NCBI GenBank assembly: GCA_043812195.1
Contig: JBDRML010000016.1
Location: 22,093 to 86,092 of the forward strand
DNA: 64,000 nucleotides
Direction: 5' to 3'
Source of the DNA: Candidatus Woesearchaeota archaeon
Lineage (GTDB): Archaea; Nanobdellota; Nanobdellia; SCGC-AAA011-G17; PNOQ01
A program made the position numbers and the translations under genes. Every line of letters begins with the position of its first letter. Within the stretch, counting starts at the first letter, position 1. Under the pieces are notes generated by a model. That model searched no databases. It was not told the origin of the DNA and saw only the letters and a program-made list of their open reading frames with translations. Positions 3,528 through 55,954 of this stretch are shown here, in pieces.

Positions 3528-3849
3528 ATCAATAAAATTATTAATAATAGAAATAATAATCGTTTTCATAATCAGTATTGTATTAAATAACTTCATAGAT
3601 ATGATAAAATTCACAACCTTTTTCATACTCTTATACTTTATCCCAATTCTTCCATGGGTATCAAAAATAAAAATGAACCTTTTAGAAAAAATGATAATAA
3701 TCAACACAATAGGTTTAGCTTTAATACCAATAGTATACATAATAATAGGATCTTTCACAAAACTATCAACAATCTTATATATTTTAGGAGCAGCAGCAAT
3801 ATTTATAGTTGGGATATTAAAAAATAGAAAAGAAAATGAAAAACATTAG
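3520..3849 (+). CDS. small 3-4 TM membrane protein, GtrA-like (putative lipid-linked sugar translocation helper)
   Basis: 109 aa, entirely hydrophobic helices; start overlaps the upstream gene end and its end overlaps the GT2 start. Confidence 0.35.
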   Translation: MNKSIKLLIIEIIIVFIISIVLNNFIDMIKFTTFFILLYFIPILPWVSKIKMNLLEKMIIINTIGLALIPIVYIIIGSFTKLSTILYILGAAAIFIVGILKNRKENEKH

Positions 3850-4561
3850 TCTATCAGTATTCTTTCCATTCTACAATGATGAAGGAAGTATAAGAAAAAT
3901 AGTTAATGATACTTTAGAAACTCTAAAAGAAATTACAGAAGATTATGAAATAATTCTAGTAGATGATCACAGCCCAGACAAAGTAGGAGAAATAGCAGAT
4001 GAATTAGCCAAAGAAAATCCAAAAATAAAAGTTATTCACCATGAAAAAAACAGAGGTTACGGAGGAGCATTAAAATCCGGTTTTTCAAACTCAACAAAAG
4101 AATACATTTTCTACACAGATGGTGATAATCAATACGATGTAAAAGAACTAAAACTATTAGTAGACAAATTAGATGAAGACACAGACTTAGTAAATGGCTA
4201 TAAATTAAGTAGAGGAGATCCTTGGTATAGAAAATTAATAGGAAGAACATATCACTGGACTGTAAAAATATTATTCAATTTAAAAATAAGAGATGTAGAT
4301 TGTGATTTTAGATTAATAAGAAGAAAATTATTTGATCAATTTGATTTGGAGTCTAATTCTGGCGTTATATGTGTAGAACTAATGAAAAAAATTCATATGC
4401 AAAAAGCTAAAATTAAAGAAGTCCCTGTTCATCATTATCCAAGATATTATGGCAAGTCTCAATTTTTTAATTTTAAAAGAATTTTTAAAGTTGGAATAGG
4501 AATTCTAAACCAATGGTATAAATTAATTTTATTAAAAAAAAATGGAAAAAGAAGCATATAA
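3836..4561 (+). CDS. GT2 family glycosyltransferase, dolichyl-phosphate mannose/glucose synthase-like
   Basis: YEIILVDDHSPD ... NRGYGGALKSGF ... YTDGDNQYD motifs of GT-A/GT2 polyprenyl-phosphate sugar synthases. Confidence 0.8.
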   Translation: MKNISLSVFFPFYNDEGSIRKIVNDTLETLKEITEDYEIILVDDHSPDKVGEIADELAKENPKIKVIHHEKNRGYGGALKSGFSNSTKEYIFYTDGDNQYDVKELKLLVDKLDEDTDLVNGYKLSRGDPWYRKLIGRTYHWTVKILFNLKIRDVDCDFRLIRRKLFDQFDLESNSGVICVELMKKIHMQKAKIKEVPVHHYPRYYGKSQFFNFKRIFKVGIGILNQWYKLILLKKNGKRSI

Positions 4562-7092: not shown

Positions 7093-8307
7093 ATGAAAGC
7101 TCTATTAATAACTGAATACTTTCCACCAATAATACATGGGGGAGGTGAAATAAGCGCATATTCCCTAGCACAAGCTTTAGCAAAAAATAATATAGAAGTT
7201 CATGTTCTTACTTCTTACTTTCCAAACCTCAAAAAATATGAAGAAAAAGATAATATAAAAATATACAGGCTCTTAGAAACAGGATTAAATCCAAGAAAAC
7301 TAACAGATAATATAAAAAGAAACATTCTATTAAAAAGATCTATAAAAAAATACGCCACAGAACTAAATAAAAAAGAAAATTTTGATATAATACACTTTCT
7401 AAATACAACTTCAATAACAAACTTACCAGAGATAAAAGCAAAAAAAATAGCAACAATAAACAATTACACAAACTTCTGTCCCAAATCAGATTTATATTAT
7501 ACAAAAACAAACTTTTCACCAGGAGAAAAAAATTTCAGAAAATATATAATAGAAATGCTTAATACAAACTACATAGGAAAACAAAAATTAAGATTCTATT
7601 TAAAATACAACCCAGCGTTTTTAACATGGCTATATTTAAATTATCTTCAAAGAAGAAAACAAATAAATTATGTAGATAAATTAATAGTCTTAAATGATCT
7701 CATAAAAAGAAAAAACACAGAAAAAATATACAACATAGCAAATATAGAAACAAAAATAACATTCTATCCAATAAAATCAGAAAACAAAAACCCAATAATT
7801 ACATTTATAGGAACTTTAGAAAAAATAAAGGGGGTAGATCTATTAATAAAAGCTTTCTCAAAAACAAAAGAAGCAAATCTATTAATAGTTGGTTCAGGCT
7901 CAGAAGAAAATAATCTCAAACAACTCTGCAAAGAGCTTAATATAGAAAATAAAGTAGAGTTCACAGGAAAACTAAACCAAAAATACTTACCATATATTTA
8001 TTCAAAAACAGACATAGTAGTATTACCAACAAGATGGCCAGAACCATTTGCTAGAGTTCTATTAGAAGCCACATTTTTCAAAAAACCAATAATAGCTACA
8101 AACACAGGTGGAAATCCAGAAGCAGTAATAGAAAATCTAAACGGGTTCCTAATAAACACAGAACAAGAACTAGCAAACAAGCTAAATATACTAATTAACA
8201 ATAAAAATCTAAGGGAAAAAATGGCTATAGAATCAGGAAATATATACAAAACTAAATTCATAACAGAAAAAATTATAAAGCAAATAATACACCTCTATCA
8301 AAAATGA
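7093..8307 (+). CDS. GT4 family (group 1) glycosyltransferase
   Basis: N-terminal ITEYFPPIIHGGGE; C-terminal EPFARVLLEATFFKKPIIATNTGGNPE (E-x7-E GT4 signature). Confidence 0.8.
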   Translation: MKALLITEYFPPIIHGGGEISAYSLAQALAKNNIEVHVLTSYFPNLKKYEEKDNIKIYRLLETGLNPRKLTDNIKRNILLKRSIKKYATELNKKENFDIIHFLNTTSITNLPEIKAKKIATINNYTNFCPKSDLYYTKTNFSPGEKNFRKYIIEMLNTNYIGKQKLRFYLKYNPAFLTWLYLNYLQRRKQINYVDKLIVLNDLIKRKNTEKIYNIANIETKITFYPIKSENKNPIITFIGTLEKIKGVDLLIKAFSKTKEANLLIVGSGSEENNLKQLCKELNIENKVEFTGKLNQKYLPYIYSKTDIVVLPTRWPEPFARVLLEATFFKKPIIATNTGGNPEAVIENLNGFLINTEQELANKLNILINNKNLREKMAIESGNIYKTKFITEKIIKQIIHLYQK

Positions 8308-8899: not shown

Positions 8900-9382
8900 A
8901 TGGAAACGAAGAAAATAAATTTCGGCTGTGGAAAAGATATAAAAAAGGGTTTTTTAAATGTCGATTACCCAGAGATTAATTTGAATAAACCATTACATTA
9001 TCAAGATAATGAATTTGATTATGGTTTGTGTAAATCAGTTATACCTTACTTAAAAAATTTGCATTTTTCATTAAAAGAAATGAAAAGAATATGTAAAAAA
9101 TTAGAAGTTGCATTTCCACATTTCTCTGTTGGGACCCCTAATCAAATATCTTATGGTAAGGTCTATTACTTGGGATTTAGTATTAACAATATGTTTCTAT
9201 TAAAACCTGATGAGATTATAGTTAAAAATTCTTTCTTTAAAATAAAATTAAAGAAGAAGAATTGGAAAGGGAAATTAATGATTTATTTTGAGCAGTATCT
9301 TAGTGCTATAATTAAAATAAGAGAAATGTATTTAATATGGAATAAAAAATCTAATAATTCGCAGGAGAAAACAGGGAGTTGA
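8900..9382 (+). CDS. small putative SAM-dependent methyltransferase-like protein, paralog of 8304..8849
   Basis: INFGCGKDIKKGFLNVD N-terminus; similar layout to the upstream gene. Confidence 0.35.
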   Translation: METKKINFGCGKDIKKGFLNVDYPEINLNKPLHYQDNEFDYGLCKSVIPYLKNLHFSLKEMKRICKKLEVAFPHFSVGTPNQISYGKVYYLGFSINNMFLLKPDEIIVKNSFFKIKLKKKNWKGKLMIYFEQYLSAIIKIREMYLIWNKKSNNSQEKTGS

Positions 9383-9478
9383 TTAAGAATGGAAAACCAA
9401 AACAATCAAGAAAAATATATGAAACAAAATTCAATCCTCAAAAACTAATAAAGCAAATAATAACCCTATACCAAAATG
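9383..9478 (+). repeat. degenerate copy of the 3' end of the GT4 gene 7093..8307
   Basis: Seen directly: ~75% identity to 8235..8310, including the ...aaagcaaataata...ccaaaATGA stop/start overlap arrangement. Confidence 0.5.
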
Positions 9479-9850
9479 AAAATAGCATTACTAATACCAT
9501 CTTTTCTTCCAATGAATGAAGGAGCAAAAAATGGATTTTTAGTTCCTTCTCAAGATTTAGAATTATTTACAGAAAAAGTAACCGTTTAGCTACCTTTTGC
9601 TTTATCGACGATAAACATGATTTTTCACAAAAATGGCCAAAATTGGCTCAGTGACGTTTTTATTCTCGATAAATTAGTTTTTCACTTTCTTTCAGTGGGC
9701 GATCAGCTAAACGGTTACCAGAAAAACAAACATTTTAATACAAAATAAAGACTTAAGAGAAAAATGTCTTTAGAATCAGAAAATATATACAAAACTAAAT
9801 TCATAACAGAAAAAATTATAAAGCAAATAATTGATCTTTATAGTAAATGA
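9477..9850 (+). pseudogene. remnant glycosyltransferase gene: ~34 N-terminal codons (MKIALLIPSFLPMNEGAKNGF...) and ~37 C-terminal codons (near-identical to the GT4 7093..8307 C-terminus) separated by a 141-bp inverted-repeat element
   Basis: Seen directly: 9735..9850 matches 8193..8307 (…ESENIYKTKFITEKIIKQII…*); 9477..9577 encodes a GT4-like N-terminus with no downstream body. Confidence 0.5.
9578..9718. repeat. inverted-repeat element: 14-bp perfect terminal inverted repeats (GTAACCGTTTAGCT / AGCTAAACGGTTAC) around a 113-bp core with internal imperfect direct repeats (CGATAAAc.tgaTTTTTCAC); MITE-like or recombination scar
   Basis: Seen directly in sequence; the same 14-20 nt motif recurs at 39831..39881 and 55901..55918. 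Confidence 0.6.
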
Positions 9851-39593: not shown

Positions 39594-39728
39594 ATTTTTA
39601 TAGTAGTTTTTATAATAGTATTATATCCTATTTTTTAGTATCATAATCCTTATATATAAAACTTTTGATTTTTGCAGAATTTTTTTAAATACTTTATTTG
39701 TTTGGTATAAAATATCAAATAAAAAAAA

Positions 39729-39741
39729 CGCCGCGACTGGG
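39729..39741. repeat. 13-bp copy of the 3' end of the tRNA gene at 40446..40560 (att-like direct repeat)
   Basis: Seen directly: CGCCGCGACTGGG at 39729..39741 equals 40446..40458. Confidence 0.55.
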
Positions 39742-39830
39742 CTTGAGGAGTTTAGGTAGAAATCCGTATTGTTATTTCTACTTTATTTTTATTACTATTA
39801 ATTTAAAGATATATAAATATTTGTTAACTT

Positions 39831-39881
39831 CGTAACCATTTAGTATGCTTAGGCAAACCCTAAGCAGCTAAACGGTTACCG
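39831..39881. repeat. long near-perfect hairpin (22-bp stem, 5-nt loop) whose arms carry the GTAACC(A/G)TTTAG...AGCTAAACGGTTACC motif
   Basis: Seen directly: cgtaaccatttagtatgcttagg-caaac-cctaagcagctaaacggttaccg. Confidence 0.6.
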
Positions 39882-39922
39882 GAAACAGAAATCTTTAAAA
39901 ACAATCATAATAACACTAAAAT

Positions 39923-40072
39923 ATGGAAACTGTAACAATACCAAAGGAAGAGTATGAATGCTTAAAAGAGAAAGCAGAATTAGATGAAGATTTATTAATT
40001 TCATTAGTCAGAGGTTTAGAAGATATAAAATCCGGCAGAATAAAACCATGGAAAAGCAAAATTAAAGATTAA
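39923..40072 (+). CDS. small ORF (49 aa) with antitoxin-like C-terminus (…GLEDIKSGRIKPW), convergent with and overlapping the RelE-like gene
   Basis: Not in the supplied ORF track (<60 aa); ATG at 39923, TAA at 40070. Weak. Confidence 0.25.
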   Translation: METVTIPKEEYECLKEKAELDEDLLISLVRGLEDIKSGRIKPWKSKIKD

Positions 40073-40373
40073 GTTTTCTTTTGATTTCTTCTTTATAGGT
40101 GGGTATTAAACTTTTTATTTTATCGATTGCTTTTTGTTGATCCCTTTTAGTGCTTATAGCAATTAAAAAAACTACAACATGTTCTTCATAAATTAGATAG
40201 TATATTCTATGGTTTTTAATTTTCTTCTCTCTGAAGAATTTATAACCTAAAGATCTACCAACGTAGGGATTCATTTCTAATTGTTCAATTTCGTTATCGA
40301 TCATTATTTGAAGAGATTTATCTAATCTATCAAAATACTTATCATATTCATCTGTAGTGAATATATTGTACAT
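40062..40373 (-). CDS. RelE/ParE-family type II toxin
   Basis: 103 aa; ...KKIKNHRIYYLIYEEHVVVFLIAISTKRDQ matches the RelE/StbE family C-terminal pattern. Confidence 0.55.
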   Translation of the reverse strand: MYNIFTTDEYDKYFDRLDKSLQIMIDNEIEQLEMNPYVGRSLGYKFFREKKIKNHRIYYLIYEEHVVVFLIAISTKRDQQKAIDKIKSLIPTYKEEIKRKLNL

Positions 40374-40445
40374 ATGAAATCAGTAATGGCTTATTGTTTT
40401 TAAATTATTTGATTTCAGTGGTGGGATTTCGACCTAAACATAGGA

Positions 40446-40560
40446 CGCCGCGACTGGGATTCGAACCCAGATATCCTTTCGGAAACAGGTTTTCAAGACT
40501 TACGCTTCAAAGATATTAAATCACTTGAATCTGCGCGATACCAGATTACGCGATCGCGGC
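40446..40560 (-). tRNA. tRNA gene (~115 nt, probably intron-containing and/or with long variable arm); anticodon not confidently assigned (candidate CAA/Leu from loop UUCAAGU)
   Basis: Perfect 7-bp acceptor stem GCCGCGA/UCGCGGC, discriminator G, T-arm CUGGG-UUCGAAU-CCCAG, D-loop with GG. Too long for an intron-less type I tRNA; anticodon-stem partner strand is not contiguous. Confidence 0.65.
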
Positions 40561-41208
40561 ATAAACTTTGTAAAACCATGTTGCTTTCAGCCATATTTAA
40601 ATTTAACTGATATGAAAAATATTTGTTTTTTTGTATAACAGCTTTAACAGGTTTATTAAATCCCAATAAACTTTCAGTTATCTTGCCTATATCCAATAAT
40701 AAACCCCTACTAGCCATATGAAATAATACTCTCCCTCTTTTATTTATCACTCTATCTGTTAATAATAATCCAAGGAAAAAATATTTTTTAACTTTCCTAC
40801 ATGAATTCAATATTAAATTCGGAACCCTTACAATAGATGCTTTCTTTCCTGAAGGAATATTCAATTCATTTACTAAATAATCAAACATTGATCTTGAGTA
40901 TTTAAAAAATTCATAGATAGTCTTTCTATTTGACCTAGTTCTATTTATTATCTTTCCTTTCTCACCAAATAAATCAAAGTATAAATTATAAAATAAGTCA
41001 ACTAAAGATTAGAAGTATTATAGAACATAATTGAATAAGTAAGATAACCAGATCCATTCATTACGGTTAGAAATACTACCATCTCCGATTACCATCCCCA
41101 AAAAAAGAGCTAATTTATTAATATTTATATCTTCCACGCCATCCTATAGATTTACAGATTTATAAATTCTGAACCAACATATGATAAAATTTCGGAAAAT
41201 CTTTTTAT

Positions 41209-44910: not shown

Positions 44911-44945
44911 AAAACATCATTTCTCACAAATTACAACATAAAATA
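44911..44945 (+). repeat. copy 1 of a 33-35 bp intergenic direct-repeat family (AAACaTyaTTTyTCACAAATTACAACATAAAA)
   Basis: Seen directly; near-identical copies at 46009, 47378, 47535. Confidence 0.6.
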
Positions 44946-45016
44946 TCTTTCATCAAAAATTTGAAAAGCTTTTTATATTGATAGTAATTCCCACCCAACA
45001 ATAGAAAAACTTATAA

Positions 45017-45029
45017 ATGTAGTCACCCA
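45017..45029 (+). repeat. 13-bp direct repeat ATGTAGTCACCCA bracketing the Fic gene (left copy)
   Basis: Seen directly; identical copy at 45993..46005, immediately after the Fic stop codon. Confidence 0.55.
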
Positions 45030-45039
45030 TATATTAAAT

Positions 45040-45990
45040 ATGAATTTAGAAGTAAGAAATGTTGGGAAAAAGAAAAAGTATTATTTAGCTCACTCATTCA
45101 GAGAAGGAAAAAAAGTAAAGAAAATAAGAAGATATTTAGGCTCAAATCTAAATAAAATTCAACTAGAAAAACTAAAAGAAAGATCAGAAGAAATCATAAA
45201 GCAACAAATAGAAAACTATAAGATCATAGCAGATCCATTAAAACACGAATTAACAGAAAAAGAATTAGAATTCCTAAAAAATTTAGAAACAAAAGGAAAA
45301 ATAGAAATAAAACATCTTTCCAAAGAGCAATGGACTAAATTCACAGAGCTTTTTACATATAACACAAATGCCATTGAAGGCTCTGAAGTAAATCAAAAAG
45401 AAGTTAAAGAAATTTTAGAAGAAAACAAATGGCCAAAAGAAGTAGATAGGGAAGATATTTCAGAAACATACGGGGTAGCAGAAGCAATTGAATTCATAAG
45501 AAAAACAAAAGAACATATATCCCTTTCCTTGATTAAAAAAATACACCAAATAATTTTCAAAAATTCCAAATCATTTGCAGGGAAATTTAGAACCAAAGGT
45601 ATTGAAGTAGCTATTAGGGATAAATTAGGAAATATAGCCCATATAGGGGCTCCTGCCAATAGAATTAGAGGATTATTAGAAGAACTAATAGATTGGCATA
45701 ATAAAAATAAGAATAAATATCCCCCAATACTATTAGCCGCTGTTGTTCATAATCAATTTGAAAATATCCACCCTTTTCAAGATGGCAATGGGAGAGTGGG
45801 AAGGCTATTGTTAAATAATATTTTATTAAAAAATAACCTGCCTCCAGTAAATATAAGTCTTGGAAATAGAAGAGAATATTATTCAACTCTACAATCTTAT
45901 CAAAAAAAAGGAGACATAAAACCCACAATTAAATTGATTTTAAAAGAATATAAAGAATTAAAGAAAGAATTAGGTGTCTACAAAAATTAA
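45040..45990 (+). CDS. Fic/Doc family protein (AMPylation/phosphocholination-type)
   Basis: Canonical Fic motif HPFQDGNGRVGRLL. Confidence 0.85.
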   Translation: MNLEVRNVGKKKKYYLAHSFREGKKVKKIRRYLGSNLNKIQLEKLKERSEEIIKQQIENYKIIADPLKHELTEKELEFLKNLETKGKIEIKHLSKEQWTKFTELFTYNTNAIEGSEVNQKEVKEILEENKWPKEVDREDISETYGVAEAIEFIRKTKEHISLSLIKKIHQIIFKNSKSFAGKFRTKGIEVAIRDKLGNIAHIGAPANRIRGLLEELIDWHNKNKNKYPPILLAAVVHNQFENIHPFQDGNGRVGRLLLNNILLKNNLPPVNISLGNRREYYSTLQSYQKKGDIKPTIKLILKEYKELKKELGVYKN

Positions 45991-45992
45991 TG

Positions 45993-46005
45993 ATGTAGTC
46001 ACCCA
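45993..46005 (+). repeat. 13-bp direct repeat ATGTAGTCACCCA (right copy)
   Basis: Seen directly. Confidence 0.55.
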
Positions 46006-46008
46006 ACA

Positions 46009-46043
46009 TCAAAACATTATTTTTTACAAATTACAACATAAAA
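46009..46043 (+). repeat. copy 2 of the 33-35 bp repeat family
   Basis: caaaacattattttttacaaattacaacataaaac. Confidence 0.6.
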
Positions 46044-46052
46044 CTCAAATGC

Positions 46053-47330
46053 CTATAACAACCATTTCCACAAAGAAATATATTTTATCTTTTTACCATT
46101 AATTCTCTCTTCACCATCCTTATCATTGGTTATAATAACTAAATTATTGCATTTAAGCTCTATACTCGCTTTCAATAATGATTTAATCTCTCTGCTTTTC
46201 GTATTTTCACTTTCAATATCATAGCATACCTGAATTAGTTCTTTAATCTTTAATCCTTCCTTAACAACAAAATCAACTTCATTTTGTTGATGGTCCTTCC
46301 AATAATAAACTTCAGTATTAATTTTATCGTTTTTGAACTTTCTTCTTAATAATTCTATAACGACTATATTTTCGAATAATTTACCATTATCTTTCGACAA
46401 CCTAAAACTAACAAAATTGCAGAATCCATGATCAACAGAATAAACCTTTTTAGGAGCAATTATTTGCTGTTTCAATTTATTTGAATATCTTTCCAAAACT
46501 ATTATCAAAAAAGCTTCCTTTAAATAATTAACATAGTTTTTAATCGTATGAGGATCTTTTATATTAAATATTTTAGAAAGTTTTGAATATGTAAATTCAC
46601 TAGAAAAATTGCTTATGAGATAGCTAGAAAGTTCTCTAAAAGTGCCTTTTTTTTCAATAGCATATCTTCTCAAACAATCTTTGTTTATTATATCCTCGTA
46701 AATTCTCACAACCATATTTGAGCCAAACTTTGCAAATTCAGGAAATCCGCTGCCATGAAGATACTTATTAAACTCCCGCCTTATTTTGGCGCGATCTTCA
46801 GTTGCATAAATATTAGGCTTAAAGCTTAATGTTTCTTTAAATGAAAACGGATATAAAACAAAATCTATGTATCTGCCAGTTAAATGAGTAGCTAACTCAC
46901 CGGATAATAATTTAGAATTACTGCCGGTTATAATAACTTTCTTGCTTCTTCTAAGCCTTGTCGCAAATAATTCCCAGCCAGTTACATTTTGAATTTCATC
47001 CAAAACTACAAGGTCTATATCACCATACATTTCATAAAATGCTTCCAATATTTTATTCAAATCAGATGTCTTGACATTAATCAGCCTTTCATCGTCAAAG
47101 TTTATATAAGCAAAATTTTGTTTTAATTCTTTTGATAAAATCAGAGAAAAAATAGACTTTCCGCTTCTTCTAACACCAAGTATAGCAAGTATATTAGGAT
47201 ACTTAAGATATTTTTTCTCGTAGTCTATGAGCTCTCTTTCTACTATTTTCTCTTCACTAAATTTCTTTTCCAGCTCTCTCCTTTGGTCTTCTATTATCCT
47301 TTTTAGTATCTCTAATTGCATAGGAATCAA
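46053..47330 (-). CDS. AAA+ superfamily ATPase with DUF4143-like C-terminus (COG1373-type predicted archaeal ATPase)
   Basis: P-loop GVRRSGKS; Walker B LVVLDEIQ; 425 aa. Confidence 0.7.
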   Translation of the reverse strand: MIPMQLEILKRIIEDQRRELEKKFSEEKIVERELIDYEKKYLKYPNILAILGVRRSGKSIFSLILSKELKQNFAYINFDDERLINVKTSDLNKILEAFYEMYGDIDLVVLDEIQNVTGWELFATRLRRSKKVIITGSNSKLLSGELATHLTGRYIDFVLYPFSFKETLSFKPNIYATEDRAKIRREFNKYLHGSGFPEFAKFGSNMVVRIYEDIINKDCLRRYAIEKKGTFRELSSYLISNFSSEFTYSKLSKIFNIKDPHTIKNYVNYLKEAFLIIVLERYSNKLKQQIIAPKKVYSVDHGFCNFVSFRLSKDNGKLFENIVVIELLRRKFKNDKINTEVYYWKDHQQNEVDFVVKEGLKIKELIQVCYDIESENTKSREIKSLLKASIELKCNNLVIITNDKDGEERINGKKIKYISLWKWLL

Positions 47331-47377
47331 AACACAAACATCTTTATAAAGTTTGCGGTTACGAACTACATACTTTT

Positions 47378-47470
47378 AAACCTTTATTTTTCACAAATTA
47401 CAACATAAAATTCAAATTCCCAAGATCTCCTAAAAGATTCAGAATTAATGCCTAAAAAACAATCTCCAAC
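47378..47470 (+). repeat. copy 3 of the 33-bp repeat plus ~60 bp duplicate of the 3' end of the pilin-like gene 47541..47951 (93-bp segment ~90% identical to 47535..47628)
   Basis: Seen directly: ...cacaaattacaacataaaattcaaattcccaagatctcctaaaagattcagaattaatgcctaaaaaacaatctccaact versus 47535 onward. Confidence 0.6.
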
Positions 47471-47534
47471 TACGCTCAAACTATGCCATTATTCACAAAA
47501 AGTTTAGTATTCTTAAATAAAAAGTGAATAATAG

Positions 47535-47569
47535 AAACATTTATTTTTCACAAATTACAACATAAAATT
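47535..47569 (+). repeat. copy 4 of the 33-bp repeat, overlapping the true 3' end of pilin-like gene 47541..47951
   Basis: aaacatttatttttcacaaattacaacataaaatt. Confidence 0.6.
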
Positions 47570-47951
47570 CAAACTCTCCAGACCTTCTAAAAGATTCAGA
47601 ATTAATGCCTAAAAAACAATCTCCAACTCTAATTTCTTCACCACTACTGCATTCCATTACAAATCCAGAATCCTCATCAACAAAATTCATATTCCCAGAT
47701 ACAAAATTTCTCAATGTATTACAATCAACTTCTTCACCCAAACAACAACTAGTTGCTAAATCTCCAAAATTAGTTCCGCTAACATCAGCTTTAGCCAAAG
47801 CATTAGCAAAATTATACGCTTTATTATTCAAATAAACATTCCTATCATCTCCTCCACTCCTAGAAAACAATAAAGCAAACAACCCAATAAACACAACTAA
47901 CAAAACAATAATAACCAATCCAAATGTTTCTATTTGTCCTTTTTTAAACAT
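47541..47951 (-). CDS. class III signal peptide (archaeal type IV pilin-like) protein
   Basis: N-terminus MFKKGQIETFGLVIIVLLVVFIGLFALLF: basic residues, G-Q processing motif, hydrophobic helix. Confidence 0.5.
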   Translation of the reverse strand: MFKKGQIETFGLVIIVLLVVFIGLFALLFSRSGGDDRNVYLNNKAYNFANALAKADVSGTNFGDLATSCCLGEEVDCNTLRNFVSGNMNFVDEDSGFVMECSSGEEIRVGDCFLGINSESFRRSGEFEFYVVICEK

Positions 47952-49322: not shown

Positions 49323-49565
49323 ATGGTGAGCATCACATTATCTGTCCCAGAAGAAATTAAAAAAAGCATGGAAACATTTTCAGAAATAAACTGGTCTGGA
49401 TTTGTCAGAAAATCCATCATAGAAAAAACACAAGAACTAACAAAAAAAGAAGAGTTATTAAAAGAATTAGAAAAAGAAAAAGATATAATAGATTGGTCTG
49501 TAAAACTTCAAAGAGTATCAAGGAAAGGAAGATTCCAAGATTTAAAAAAGAAGGGATTAATATGA
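49323..49565 (+). CDS. ribbon-helix-helix (CopG-like) antitoxin
   Basis: MVSITLSVPEEIKKSMETFSE... beta-strand/helix pattern of RHH antitoxins; stop overlaps the PIN gene start (ATGA). Confidence 0.45.
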   Translation: MVSITLSVPEEIKKSMETFSEINWSGFVRKSIIEKTQELTKKEELLKELEKEKDIIDWSVKLQRVSRKGRFQDLKKKGLI

Positions 49566-49990
49566 AATTGGTAACTGATACAAACATATTATTCACTTTT
49601 TTCTGGAAAAACTCCTATACAAGAAAATTATTCATAAATCAAGATTTAGAATTAATATCTCCAGAATTCGCTTTAGAAGAAATAAAAAAATATTCCGAAG
49701 AAATAATTAGAAGAGCAAAAATATCAAAAAAAGAATTTCAGGATATCAGAAAAGAACTCGCTCTTATGGTTGAATTTATACCTTTAAAAGAATATTCAGA
49801 ATATTTAAAAAAAGCATCAGAAATTTCTTATGATAAAGATGATGTTGATTTTATTGCTTTAGCTTTAAAACTAAAATCCCCCATATGGTCTAATGATAAA
49901 GAATTTAAGAAACAAAATAAAATTAAAGTTTACTCTACTCTAGAAGTTTTAAAAGAATTAAACTATGGATCAATTAATAATGAAAAGTAA
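49562..49990 (+). CDS. PIN-domain toxin (VapC-like)
   Basis: Start moved to in-frame ATG at 49562: MKLVTDTNILF ... DFIALALKLKSPIWSNDKEF (PIN acidic residues). Confidence 0.55.
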   Translation: MKLVTDTNILFTFFWKNSYTRKLFINQDLELISPEFALEEIKKYSEEIIRRAKISKKEFQDIRKELALMVEFIPLKEYSEYLKKASEISYDKDDVDFIALALKLKSPIWSNDKEFKKQNKIKVYSTLEVLKELNYGSINNEK

Positions 49991-55900: not shown

Positions 55901-55918
55901 TAGTAGCTAAACGGTTAC
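55901..55918. repeat. single copy of the AAAAAGTAACCGTTTAGCTAC motif (reverse orientation) between the toxin-antitoxin pair and PCNA
   Basis: Seen directly: tagtagctaaacggttac; reverse complement matches 9572..9592 over 21 nt. Confidence 0.55.
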
Positions 55919-55954
55919 TTTTTTAGAACCCTCATTTCACTTGTCTATCAACTA

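Follow-up and report, generated by a model that had tools for sequence, protein, structure and literature searches.

A 64-kb stretch of the genome of a Candidatus Woesearchaeota archaeon (64,000 nucleotides of contig JBDRML010000016.1, called the window below and numbered from its first letter) carries, at the 3' end of a tRNA-Ser(UGA) gene, a 703-bp insert that lies between two copies of the tRNA terminus. On the minus strand the order is intact tRNA, insert, and then a displaced 3' fragment of the tRNA in direct orientation, and the observations below support the conclusion that the tRNA gene received a discrete insertion, of which the duplicated 3' end is the mark. Our favored reading, to which we assign a probability of roughly 0.6, is that positions 39742-40444 are a small mini-element without a recombinase of its own, which entered by site-specific recombination at the 3' end of tRNA-Ser(UGA). 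This islet contains only two open reading frames (ORFs), a toxin gene of the RelE/ParE fold and a convergent gene for a 49-aa partner, and its whole cargo would be this two-gene module, which is widespread in DPANN archaea. A preliminary description of the same DNA, made from the sequence alone, had read the islet as the remnant of an integrated element that was stripped of its integrase and retained through its addiction module.

The tRNA gene, its duplicated 3' end and the insert

Default runs of ARAGORN, and of Rfam at its gathering threshold, report no tRNA anywhere in the window, because the gene is interrupted by an intron of 31-32 nt in the 5' strand of its anticodon stem; a search of Rfam by E-value returns only a weak tRNA-Sec-like match at 40447-40560(-). 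When introns are allowed, ARAGORN finds at c[40443,40561] a tRNA-Ser(tga) whose intron is 31 nt long, and it calls the spliced sequence tRNA-Ser(tga) as well. Manual reading gives a UGA anticodon and the long variable arm of a type II tRNA, together with extra sequence inserted in the anticodon-stem 5' strand. The orthologue in another Woesearchaeota metagenome-assembled genome (MAG; locus L014) has a 32-nt intron in the same place, and between the two genes both the anticodon stem (CAGGU/ACCUG versus CUGGC/GCCAG) and the D stem show compensatory changes, so the cloverleaf, long variable arm, UGA anticodon and covariation of a type II tRNA-Ser are all present. The preliminary description had placed a tRNA at 40446..40560 with a 13-mer as its 3' acceptor/T-stem strand, and the gene called here bears this out, with the discriminator base included in that strand.

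This is the only tRNA gene in the 64 kb, and the position of its intron, in the anticodon-stem 5' strand, is non-canonical. The introns of the window tRNA and of the L014 tRNA (4409-4523 of that locus) share ATTCA as their first and GYGTAA as their last bases. Immediately 5' of the tRNA-Ser gene is a two-motif LAGLIDADG gene (40561-41137, minus strand), the frame of which runs into the tRNA 5' end; this gene is homing-endonuclease-like, and its place beside the intron-bearing tRNA is conserved. Its orthologue in L014 (4509-5144, minus strand) is intact, with 211 aa, a LAGLIDADG_3 match at E = 2.9e-9 and a stop codon within the tRNA D arm; the window copy has two in-frame stops and is probably a pseudogene.

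The features that define the insertion are the following.

39721..39728, minus strand: run of eight T residues (T8) directly after the distal repeat (seen in the sequence and by comparison with tRNA-Ser(CGA) ends in loci L013 and L019)
39728..39741, minus strand: distal 14-bp copy, an orphan tRNA-Ser 3' end that would be an attR-like (right attachment site) junction or a target duplication (repeat search)
39742..40444, no strand assigned: 703-bp insert between the repeat copies (repeat search; missing at the syntenic locus L014/L016/L018)
39750..39765, plus strand: left sub-terminal arm GTTTAGGTAGAAATCC, 8 nt inside the distal repeat (repeat search)
40424..40439, minus strand: right sub-terminal arm, with the reverse complement GTTTAGGTCGAAATCC, 6 nt inside the proximal repeat (repeat search)
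40445..40458, minus strand: proximal 14-bp copy, the functional tRNA 3' end plus 1 nt (repeat search and tRNA call)
40446..40560, minus strand: tRNA-Ser(UGA), type II, with a long variable arm and a 31-nt intron at 40500-40530 (ARAGORN with introns; covariation with L014)

The exact 13-mer CGCCGCGACTGGG occurs twice in the window, at 39729-39741 and 40446-40458, whereas no match with up to one mismatch is expected by chance (100 shuffles). The duplication of the tRNA 3' end at 39729..39741 that had been described is thus exact, and the identity in fact extends to 14 bp, ACGCCGCGACTGGG, at 39728-39741 and 40445-40458, with an A preceding each copy; when the repeat is extended by three bases, 16 of 17 positions are identical. 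This direct repeat is unique in the window and cannot be due to chance, because 10 of its bases are G or C in a genome of about 29% G+C. Among the loci fetched from genome and metagenome collections the 13-mer is otherwise found only inside tRNA-Ser genes, and the search for further copies in them, as the preliminary description had recommended for the genome, turned up none at unrelated positions. In terms of tRNA structure the repeated block covers the 3' strands of the T stem and of the acceptor stem and the discriminator, followed by a single base of the trailer. When the minus strand is read, T8 comes directly after the distal copy, and unrelated sequence after the proximal one. The 19 nt formed by the distal copy and its T-run, AAAAAACGCCGCGACTGGG, match the natural 3' end and T-run of the tRNA-Ser(CGA) genes of L013 and L019; in L013 the natural end reads CCCAGTCGCGGCG and then T6, a 19-nt match to the distal copy and T-run. 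Judged from these sequences, the T8 after the distal copy looks like the original trailer or terminator of the tRNA gene. Reading of the sequence upstream of the distal copy finds no T-loop or other tRNA sequence. This layout, with the old terminus downstream and its T8 kept, is what the entry of DNA at the end of a tRNA gene should produce.

The insert contains a 16-bp inverted repeat, with arms GTTTAGGTAGAAATCC at 39750-39765 and GGATTTCGACCTAAAC at 40424-40439 that agree at 15 of 16 positions. An inverted repeat of this quality between the two 40-nt ends was never equalled among 5000 shuffles; of 20000 pairs of real window segments with the same spacing, 6 reached it. The outermost 5-8 nt of the insert ends do not match each other, and no other copy of the 16-mer arm with up to two mismatches is present in the window or in the fetched loci. 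The inverted repeat is new, being absent from the preliminary description, and with it the islet becomes a bounded, discrete element, more than the stretch between two chance repeats.

Two further structures within the insert, both of which had been described before, do fold.

39756..39781, plus strand: stem-loop with 8-bp stem GTAGAAAT/ATTTCTAC, overlapping the left arm and followed by a T-rich run (-4.5 kcal/mol, z = -2.6; previously placed, with its T-run, at 39751..39790)
39832..39879, plus strand: imperfect hairpin (the previously described 51-nt motif) with outer 14-mer arms GTAACCGTTTAGCT / AGCTAAACGGTTAC (-13.8 kcal/mol, z = -5.0)

The 14-mer arms of the hairpin recur at 9578, 9705 and 55905, and in all the 14-mer GTAACCGTTTAGCT and its complement have four exact occurrences (9570-9726; 39832-39879; 55905-55925). 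A 141-bp element at 9578-9718 carries the 14-mer as terminal inverted repeats and is flanked by the 8-bp direct repeat CAGAAAAA, and so resembles a miniature inverted-repeat transposable element (MITE); the islet hairpin is a 48-bp version of it, and the similarity extends about 25 nt to the right of the hairpin (9719-9743 versus 39880-39904). A solo 14-mer arm in the same 21-nt context adjoins the PCNA gene (55905-55925).

Origin of the insert

In the site-specific recombination that we favor, an element-borne site would have recombined with the 13 terminal nucleotides of the tRNA and 1 nt of the trailer behind them. The attachment site of the element (attP) can be reconstructed as ...GGATTTCGACCTAAAC-ATAGG-[ACGCCGCGACTGGG]-CTTGAGGA-GTTTAGGTAGAAATCC..., in which the core is flanked by the inverted repeats; the predicted junction of the empty site is ...TTCGAATCCCAGTCGCGGCGTTTTTTTTATTTGATATTTTATACC and that of the circle ...GGATTTCGACCTAAACATAGGACGCCGCGACTGGGCTTGAGGAGTTTAGGTAGAAATCC, with GTTTAGGTMGAAATCC as the arm sequence of the element. 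Such an event would leave the tRNA intact at one junction and displace its old 3' end and T8 terminator 717 bp downstream. The element would be either a deletion derivative or a natural non-autonomous element (MITE-like, or like the cis-mobilizable elements, CIMEs), and the enzyme, whose class we infer, would be supplied in trans. When the insert is circularized on paper, the 14-bp core has the arms 5-6 and 8 nt away from it, a layout that resembles a recombination site with symmetric binding sites. Site-specific recombination is favored because the duplicated block is the exact tRNA terminus, and because the inverted repeats are arranged symmetrically about the core, in sub-terminal and not terminal positions. 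The features of a tRNA-targeted element that are found are the flanking direct repeats of the tRNA 3' end and the intact tRNA; an integrase of its own is not. Thus, of the integration at attachment (att) sites that the preliminary description had proposed, the discrete insertion at the tRNA gene stands, on its geometry, the T8 run and the inverted repeats, but the integrase as agent and the status of stripped remnant do not follow, since the islet could equally be a small non-autonomous element. Its retention through toxin addiction is plausible.

A documented archaeal parallel is the pleolipovirus SNJ2. The 14-bp core used by its tyrosine integrase, IntSNJ2, corresponds to the 3'-distal part of tRNA-Met, and 14-bp direct repeats flank the provirus (PMC5861418; PMC8371274). 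Archaeal att cores of 8-14 bp are known, and a review lists some as short as 8-13 bp (PMC5861418; PMC8371274, section 17). The islet is like SNJ2 in its 14-bp core equal to the 3' part of a tRNA, its 14-bp flanking direct repeats and the tRNA kept intact. SNJ2, however, is a virus of 16 kb with genes for its own integrase and for accessory proteins, whereas the islet is 0.7 kb long, recombinase-free, resident in a DPANN host and furnished with 16-bp inverted repeats beside the core. Integrase-less islets flanked by left and right attachment sites (attL/attR), CIMEs among them, are known in bacteria. With these the islet shares the att-like direct repeats at a tRNA gene, the lack of an integrase and a small cargo that may be mobilized or passively retained; it differs from them in that no cognate autonomous element is identified for it.

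Relatives of the locus were sought by scanning genome and metagenome collections for the exact 25-mer of the tRNA 3' part. Among the loci found, this tRNA-Ser(UGA) is carried by near-identical copies of the window (L001 and L020, 99.3-99.9% identity) and by only one other lineage (L014/L016/L018). Both repeat copies are present in L020 at the same 717-bp spacing; L001 ends inside the islet and has the proximal copy only. The L014/L016/L018 loci belong to a different Woesearchaeota lineage, with 40-60% protein identity, and are syntenic with the window on both sides: they share an AI-2E transporter on one side and, on the other, the tRNA-Ser(UGA), the LAGLIDADG gene, small membrane proteins of 222 and 163 aa, and an S-layer gene. 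They have no islet, no toxin pair and a single 13-mer, and after their tRNA an unrelated secreted-protein gene follows at 55 bp. Because it is missing at these syntenic loci, the islet lies outside the conserved arrangement.

Two loci met in these scans are of separate note. In L013, which comes from an unrelated MAG of an archaeon (ARS54), the region 3925-4418(-), immediately downstream of a tRNA-Ser(CGA) gene with the same 3' end (3835-3918), holds a Fic/Doc-type toxin gene that is truncated (95 aa; Fic match at E = 9e-8) and has two neighbors of 40 aa each; there is no second 13-mer within 8 kb. In L015, which is GC-rich and haloarchaeon-like, 12 nt of the tRNA-Ser 3' end are repeated in inverted orientation some 300 bp away from the tRNA (~148-159 and 452-476); given the base composition, it is probably a chance match.

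A number of findings weigh against the favored reading. A Pfam scan of the ~57 ORFs of at least 113 aa in the window identified no integrase (Phage_integrase), Resolvase, transposase or other recombinase, and neither of the two islet ORFs is one; the absence of an integrase from the islet that had been reported thus extends to the scanned ORFs around it. The L014/L016/L018 lineage, with 40-60% protein identity, is a distant one, and there is no homology in its left flank, so the comparison with related genomes that had been suggested yielded a syntenic tRNA without islet and second 13-mer, but no close and clean empty site. The reconstructed attP has no match in IMG/VR, the islet DNA has none in phage and plasmid collections, and no second copy of the element ends is present in the window or the fetched loci. 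The inverted-repeat arms are 27 bp apart in the attP, wider than in classical tyrosine-recombinase core sites. As regards the cargo, the partner has no significant known-family match among Pfam, NCBIfam and PDB profiles, and a convergent layout is atypical for type II toxin-antitoxin systems. Other searches of IMG/VR gave only what we take to be chance: 30 matches to the 16-mer arm, all single and with no toxin, and at least 120 to the 14-mer core, with nothing AT-rich and DPANN-like or preceded by a T-loop among the matches listed. A split integrase of the SSV type was also considered and rejected: the ORFs that run across the two cores join to ~52 aa without similarity. The scanned ORFs encode glycosylation, transport and housekeeping functions (PCNA, eRF1, ScpB, S-layer), with a few defense-type genes (Fic, PIN_2, AAA_14/DUF4143).

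How else might the islet have arisen? A non-autonomous inverted-repeat element could have been inserted through a 14-bp staggered cut made in trans by a casposase-like (Cas1) or other transposase, in which case the 14-mer would be a target-site duplication. The 14-bp repeat does begin where the T-loop ends, and each end of the insert has an inverted-repeat arm close by. Casposons have terminal inverted repeats; those of Methanosarcina mazei make a 14-bp target duplication at tRNA-Leu, and that of Aciduliprofundum boonei has a 15-bp duplication overlapping the 3' end of tRNA-Pro, with the T-loop as 'leader' (PMC4779613, PMC5137440). The islet is like casposons in its duplication of 14-15 bp at a tRNA 3' end, its inverted repeats near the ends and its archaeal host, but unlike theirs its inverted repeats are sub-terminal, lying 6-8 nt inside the duplications and not abutting them, with the terminal 5-8 nt mismatched, and neither Cas1 nor family B DNA polymerase (PolB) is found among the ~57 window ORFs. 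Casposons measure several kb or more, and the islet 0.7 kb. Neither the window nor the fetched loci hold another copy with a different duplication, nor do they show what is expected of a MITE, namely many copies with the same terminal repeats and different target duplications, and the literature that was consulted describes no non-autonomous derivative of a casposon. We regard transposition as an unlikely origin. It is also improbable that a foreign DPANN tRNA-Ser with the toxin pair was anchored by homologous recombination in the tRNA at one end and joined illegitimately at the other, which fell by chance 14 nt before the end of the recipient tRNA. The tRNA is conserved enough for such anchoring (the 25-mer is identical in L013, L014, L015 and L017), the region to its left is variable among relatives, and the pair, which occurs in 12 other contexts without boundaries (below), must often move without att-like scars. 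This origin, however, leaves unexplained a 15/16 inverted repeat placed near-symmetrically beside both copies, and it does not predict that the duplicated block should be a structural unit of the tRNA, from the T-stem strand to the discriminator.

Two other explanations have very little to recommend them. Integrons and attC arrays have been reported in Archaea, including Nanoarchaeota, and toxin-antitoxin proteins make up 10.5% of annotated archaeal cassette proteins (PMC9668308), so the hairpin at 39832-39879 might be attC-like and the toxin pair an integron-like cassette that entered at a secondary site. Bulged bases are present in the hairpin, its arms contain AAC...GTT, and a second element of different length has the same 14-bp arms (9578-9718). 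It lies, however, 90 nt inside the insert and not at a boundary, its arms fit the RYYYAAC/GTTRRRY consensus only in the AAC/GTT triplets, no IntI-type integrase or cassette array is found in the window, and other copies of the pair lack the hairpin; we consider a cassette origin very unlikely. We give as little credence to a distal 13-mer that has nothing to do with mobility, whether by chance or as part of another RNA such as the 3' half of a split tRNA. The distal 13-mer is indeed followed by a terminator-like T8 run and preceded by a stem-loop, but chance should give no match at all, the intact tRNA-Ser has a 3' half of its own, and upstream of the distal copy there is no T-loop, complementary leader or promoter context of the tRNA-half type, and Rfam finds nothing there.

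The convergent toxin and partner genes

The gene-level features of the insert are the following.

39894..39905, plus strand: TATA-like 12-mer TTTAAAAACAAT, ending 17 nt upstream of the partner ATG (exact reverse complement of 40393-40404)
39923..40072, plus strand: conserved 49-aa partner (candidate antitoxin), convergent with the toxin gene and overlapping it by 11 nt (profile search and alignment)
40062..40373, minus strand: RelE/ParE-fold toxin, 103 aa (Pfam, PDB profile and predicted structure)
40393..40404, minus strand: the same TATA-like 12-mer TTTAAAAACAAT, ending 19 nt upstream of the toxin ATG (repeat search)

Membership of the toxin in the RelE/ParE superfamily, which the preliminary description had proposed, is supported by both sequence and fold. 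It matches PF05016 ParE_toxin at 25.5 bits, above the cut-off of 23, and a profile search of PDB sequences finds E. coli RelE at E = 0.002. The best Foldseek matches of its AlphaFold model (predicted local distance difference test score, pLDDT, of 91.4) are 4fxe_E, again E. coli RelE (E = 2e-6, target-normalized TM-score 0.83), HigB2, ParE and archaeal RelE, and the model shows a long extra C-terminal helix at residues 76-100. The protein is presumably a ribosome-dependent mRNA endonuclease.

The convergent 49-aa ORF overlapping the end of the toxin gene had also been noted; its overlap is 11 nt, it is conserved elsewhere and, on the strength of its sequence conservation, it is a real gene. 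An alignment of 10 partner sequences (A1) has 11 invariant residues, LEDI..GRIK among them. By profile search the family numbers at least 955 clusters (E <= 1e-3); almost all of them carry the annotation 'hypothetical', and one is identical to a protein of a Ca. Woesearchaeota MAG. Matches to named families are faint (PRK13696 0.0058, DUF2683 0.056, RelB_ParD 0.068). The model made from alignment A3 predicts an extended N-terminus, one long helix at residues 8-36 and a tail, a shape that would be compatible with a wrap-around antitoxin such as archaeal RelB. The partner would then be the antitoxin and would bind the toxin in the manner of domain-less archaeal RelB. The 72 nt upstream of the toxin gene leave no room for a co-directional ORF.

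The two identical 12-mers suggest two separate promoters that would give transcripts with short leaders or none. Since the minus strand within the partner ORF contains no run of five or more T residues, the toxin transcript should run antisense through the partner gene, as far as can be predicted from the sequence. Being convergent with overlapping 3' ends, the two genes must have mRNAs that are partly antisense to each other, and such antisense overlap could add a layer of control at the level of RNA.

The islet pair is like the type II RelBE/ParDE systems, including archaeal RelBE (PDB 1wmi, 3bpq), in its RelE/ParE-fold toxin, and like archaeal RelB the partner is predicted to be small, acidic-to-basic, helical and devoid of a globular DNA-binding domain. 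It departs from these systems in its convergent genes with 3' overlap, where a type II operon has co-transcribed genes and an antitoxin of known family, in a partner without an antitoxin-family match (best E = 0.0058-0.068), and in the extra C-terminal helix of the toxin. A literature search for convergent type II RelE systems yielded nothing directly relevant. Type I loci such as txpA/ratA and par of pAD1 have convergent transcripts that overlap at their 3' ends, with a non-coding RNA as antitoxin and a small membrane peptide as toxin. The islet resembles these in its convergent units, overlapping 3' ends and antisense potential, but both of its partners are conserved proteins.

In DPANN archaea 12 further genomic contexts hold the toxin gene with a 46-65-aa partner, convergent and overlapping in the same way, so that the two are together in 13 of 13 (the other loci, with the toxin near the center of each, include L002, L006, L009, L021, L024, L026, L028 and L061-L064). 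Elsewhere too the genes are always convergent, overlap by roughly 10-17 nt, and sit tightly between unrelated housekeeping genes, for example between SecE and FtsZ, or beside diphthamide synthase, DnaJ or TrmB. In the 12 other contexts there is no adjacent tRNA, even when introns are allowed, no flanking direct repeat above shuffle level, and no comparable inverted repeat; homology of the non-coding flanks among pair copies stops ~50 nt upstream of each ATG, and the islet hairpin is absent from the other copies. The module is thus widely spread, and the frame of direct and inverted repeats is specific to the window copy and not to the module.

Other repeats in the window and significance of the islet

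Repeats also accompany other genes of the window. A 43-nt motif, AAAACATTATTTTTTACAAATTACAACATAAAA..., occurs four times at 44911-47628, around a Fic gene (45040-45990) and an AAA_14/DUF4143 gene (46053-47330), and two copies of 94 nt, at 47378 and 47535, are 157 nt apart. Positions 49493-49990 hold a PIN_2 gene. The last 104 nt (8204-8307) of a glycosyltransferase gene at 7093-8307 recur at 9377-9480 and 9747-9850, with 65% and 85% identity, and the copies are separated by two methyltransferase-like ORFs and the MITE-like element. These 3'-end copies look like the result of serial insertions or replacements, each of which brought or displaced a copy, in parallel to the duplicated tRNA end.

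The insertion of an integrase-less islet at a tRNA gene is of a familiar type; here it is seen in a DPANN host, with unusually clear boundaries and an unusual layout of the cargo. A bolder possibility, which we put forward tentatively and consider doubtful, is that the islet is an intact, miniature 'addiction cassette' that targets DPANN tRNA genes and can be mobilized in trans by a casposase-like enzyme or a short-core integrase encoded elsewhere, and that its cargo is an undescribed kind of toxin-antitoxin system combining protein neutralization with antisense control. The mobile elements of DPANN archaea are poorly known, and the islet supplies a concrete att or terminal-repeat sequence with which to look for the enzyme that moves such DNA. 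Default tRNA finders overlook intron-bearing DPANN tRNAs and hence also the integration sites at them. The cargo is the more general result, since convergent gene pairs of this RelE type form a large family that lacks annotation and are not standard type II operons; if it is a true toxin-antitoxin system, it would widen the known layouts of such systems and point to antisense control.

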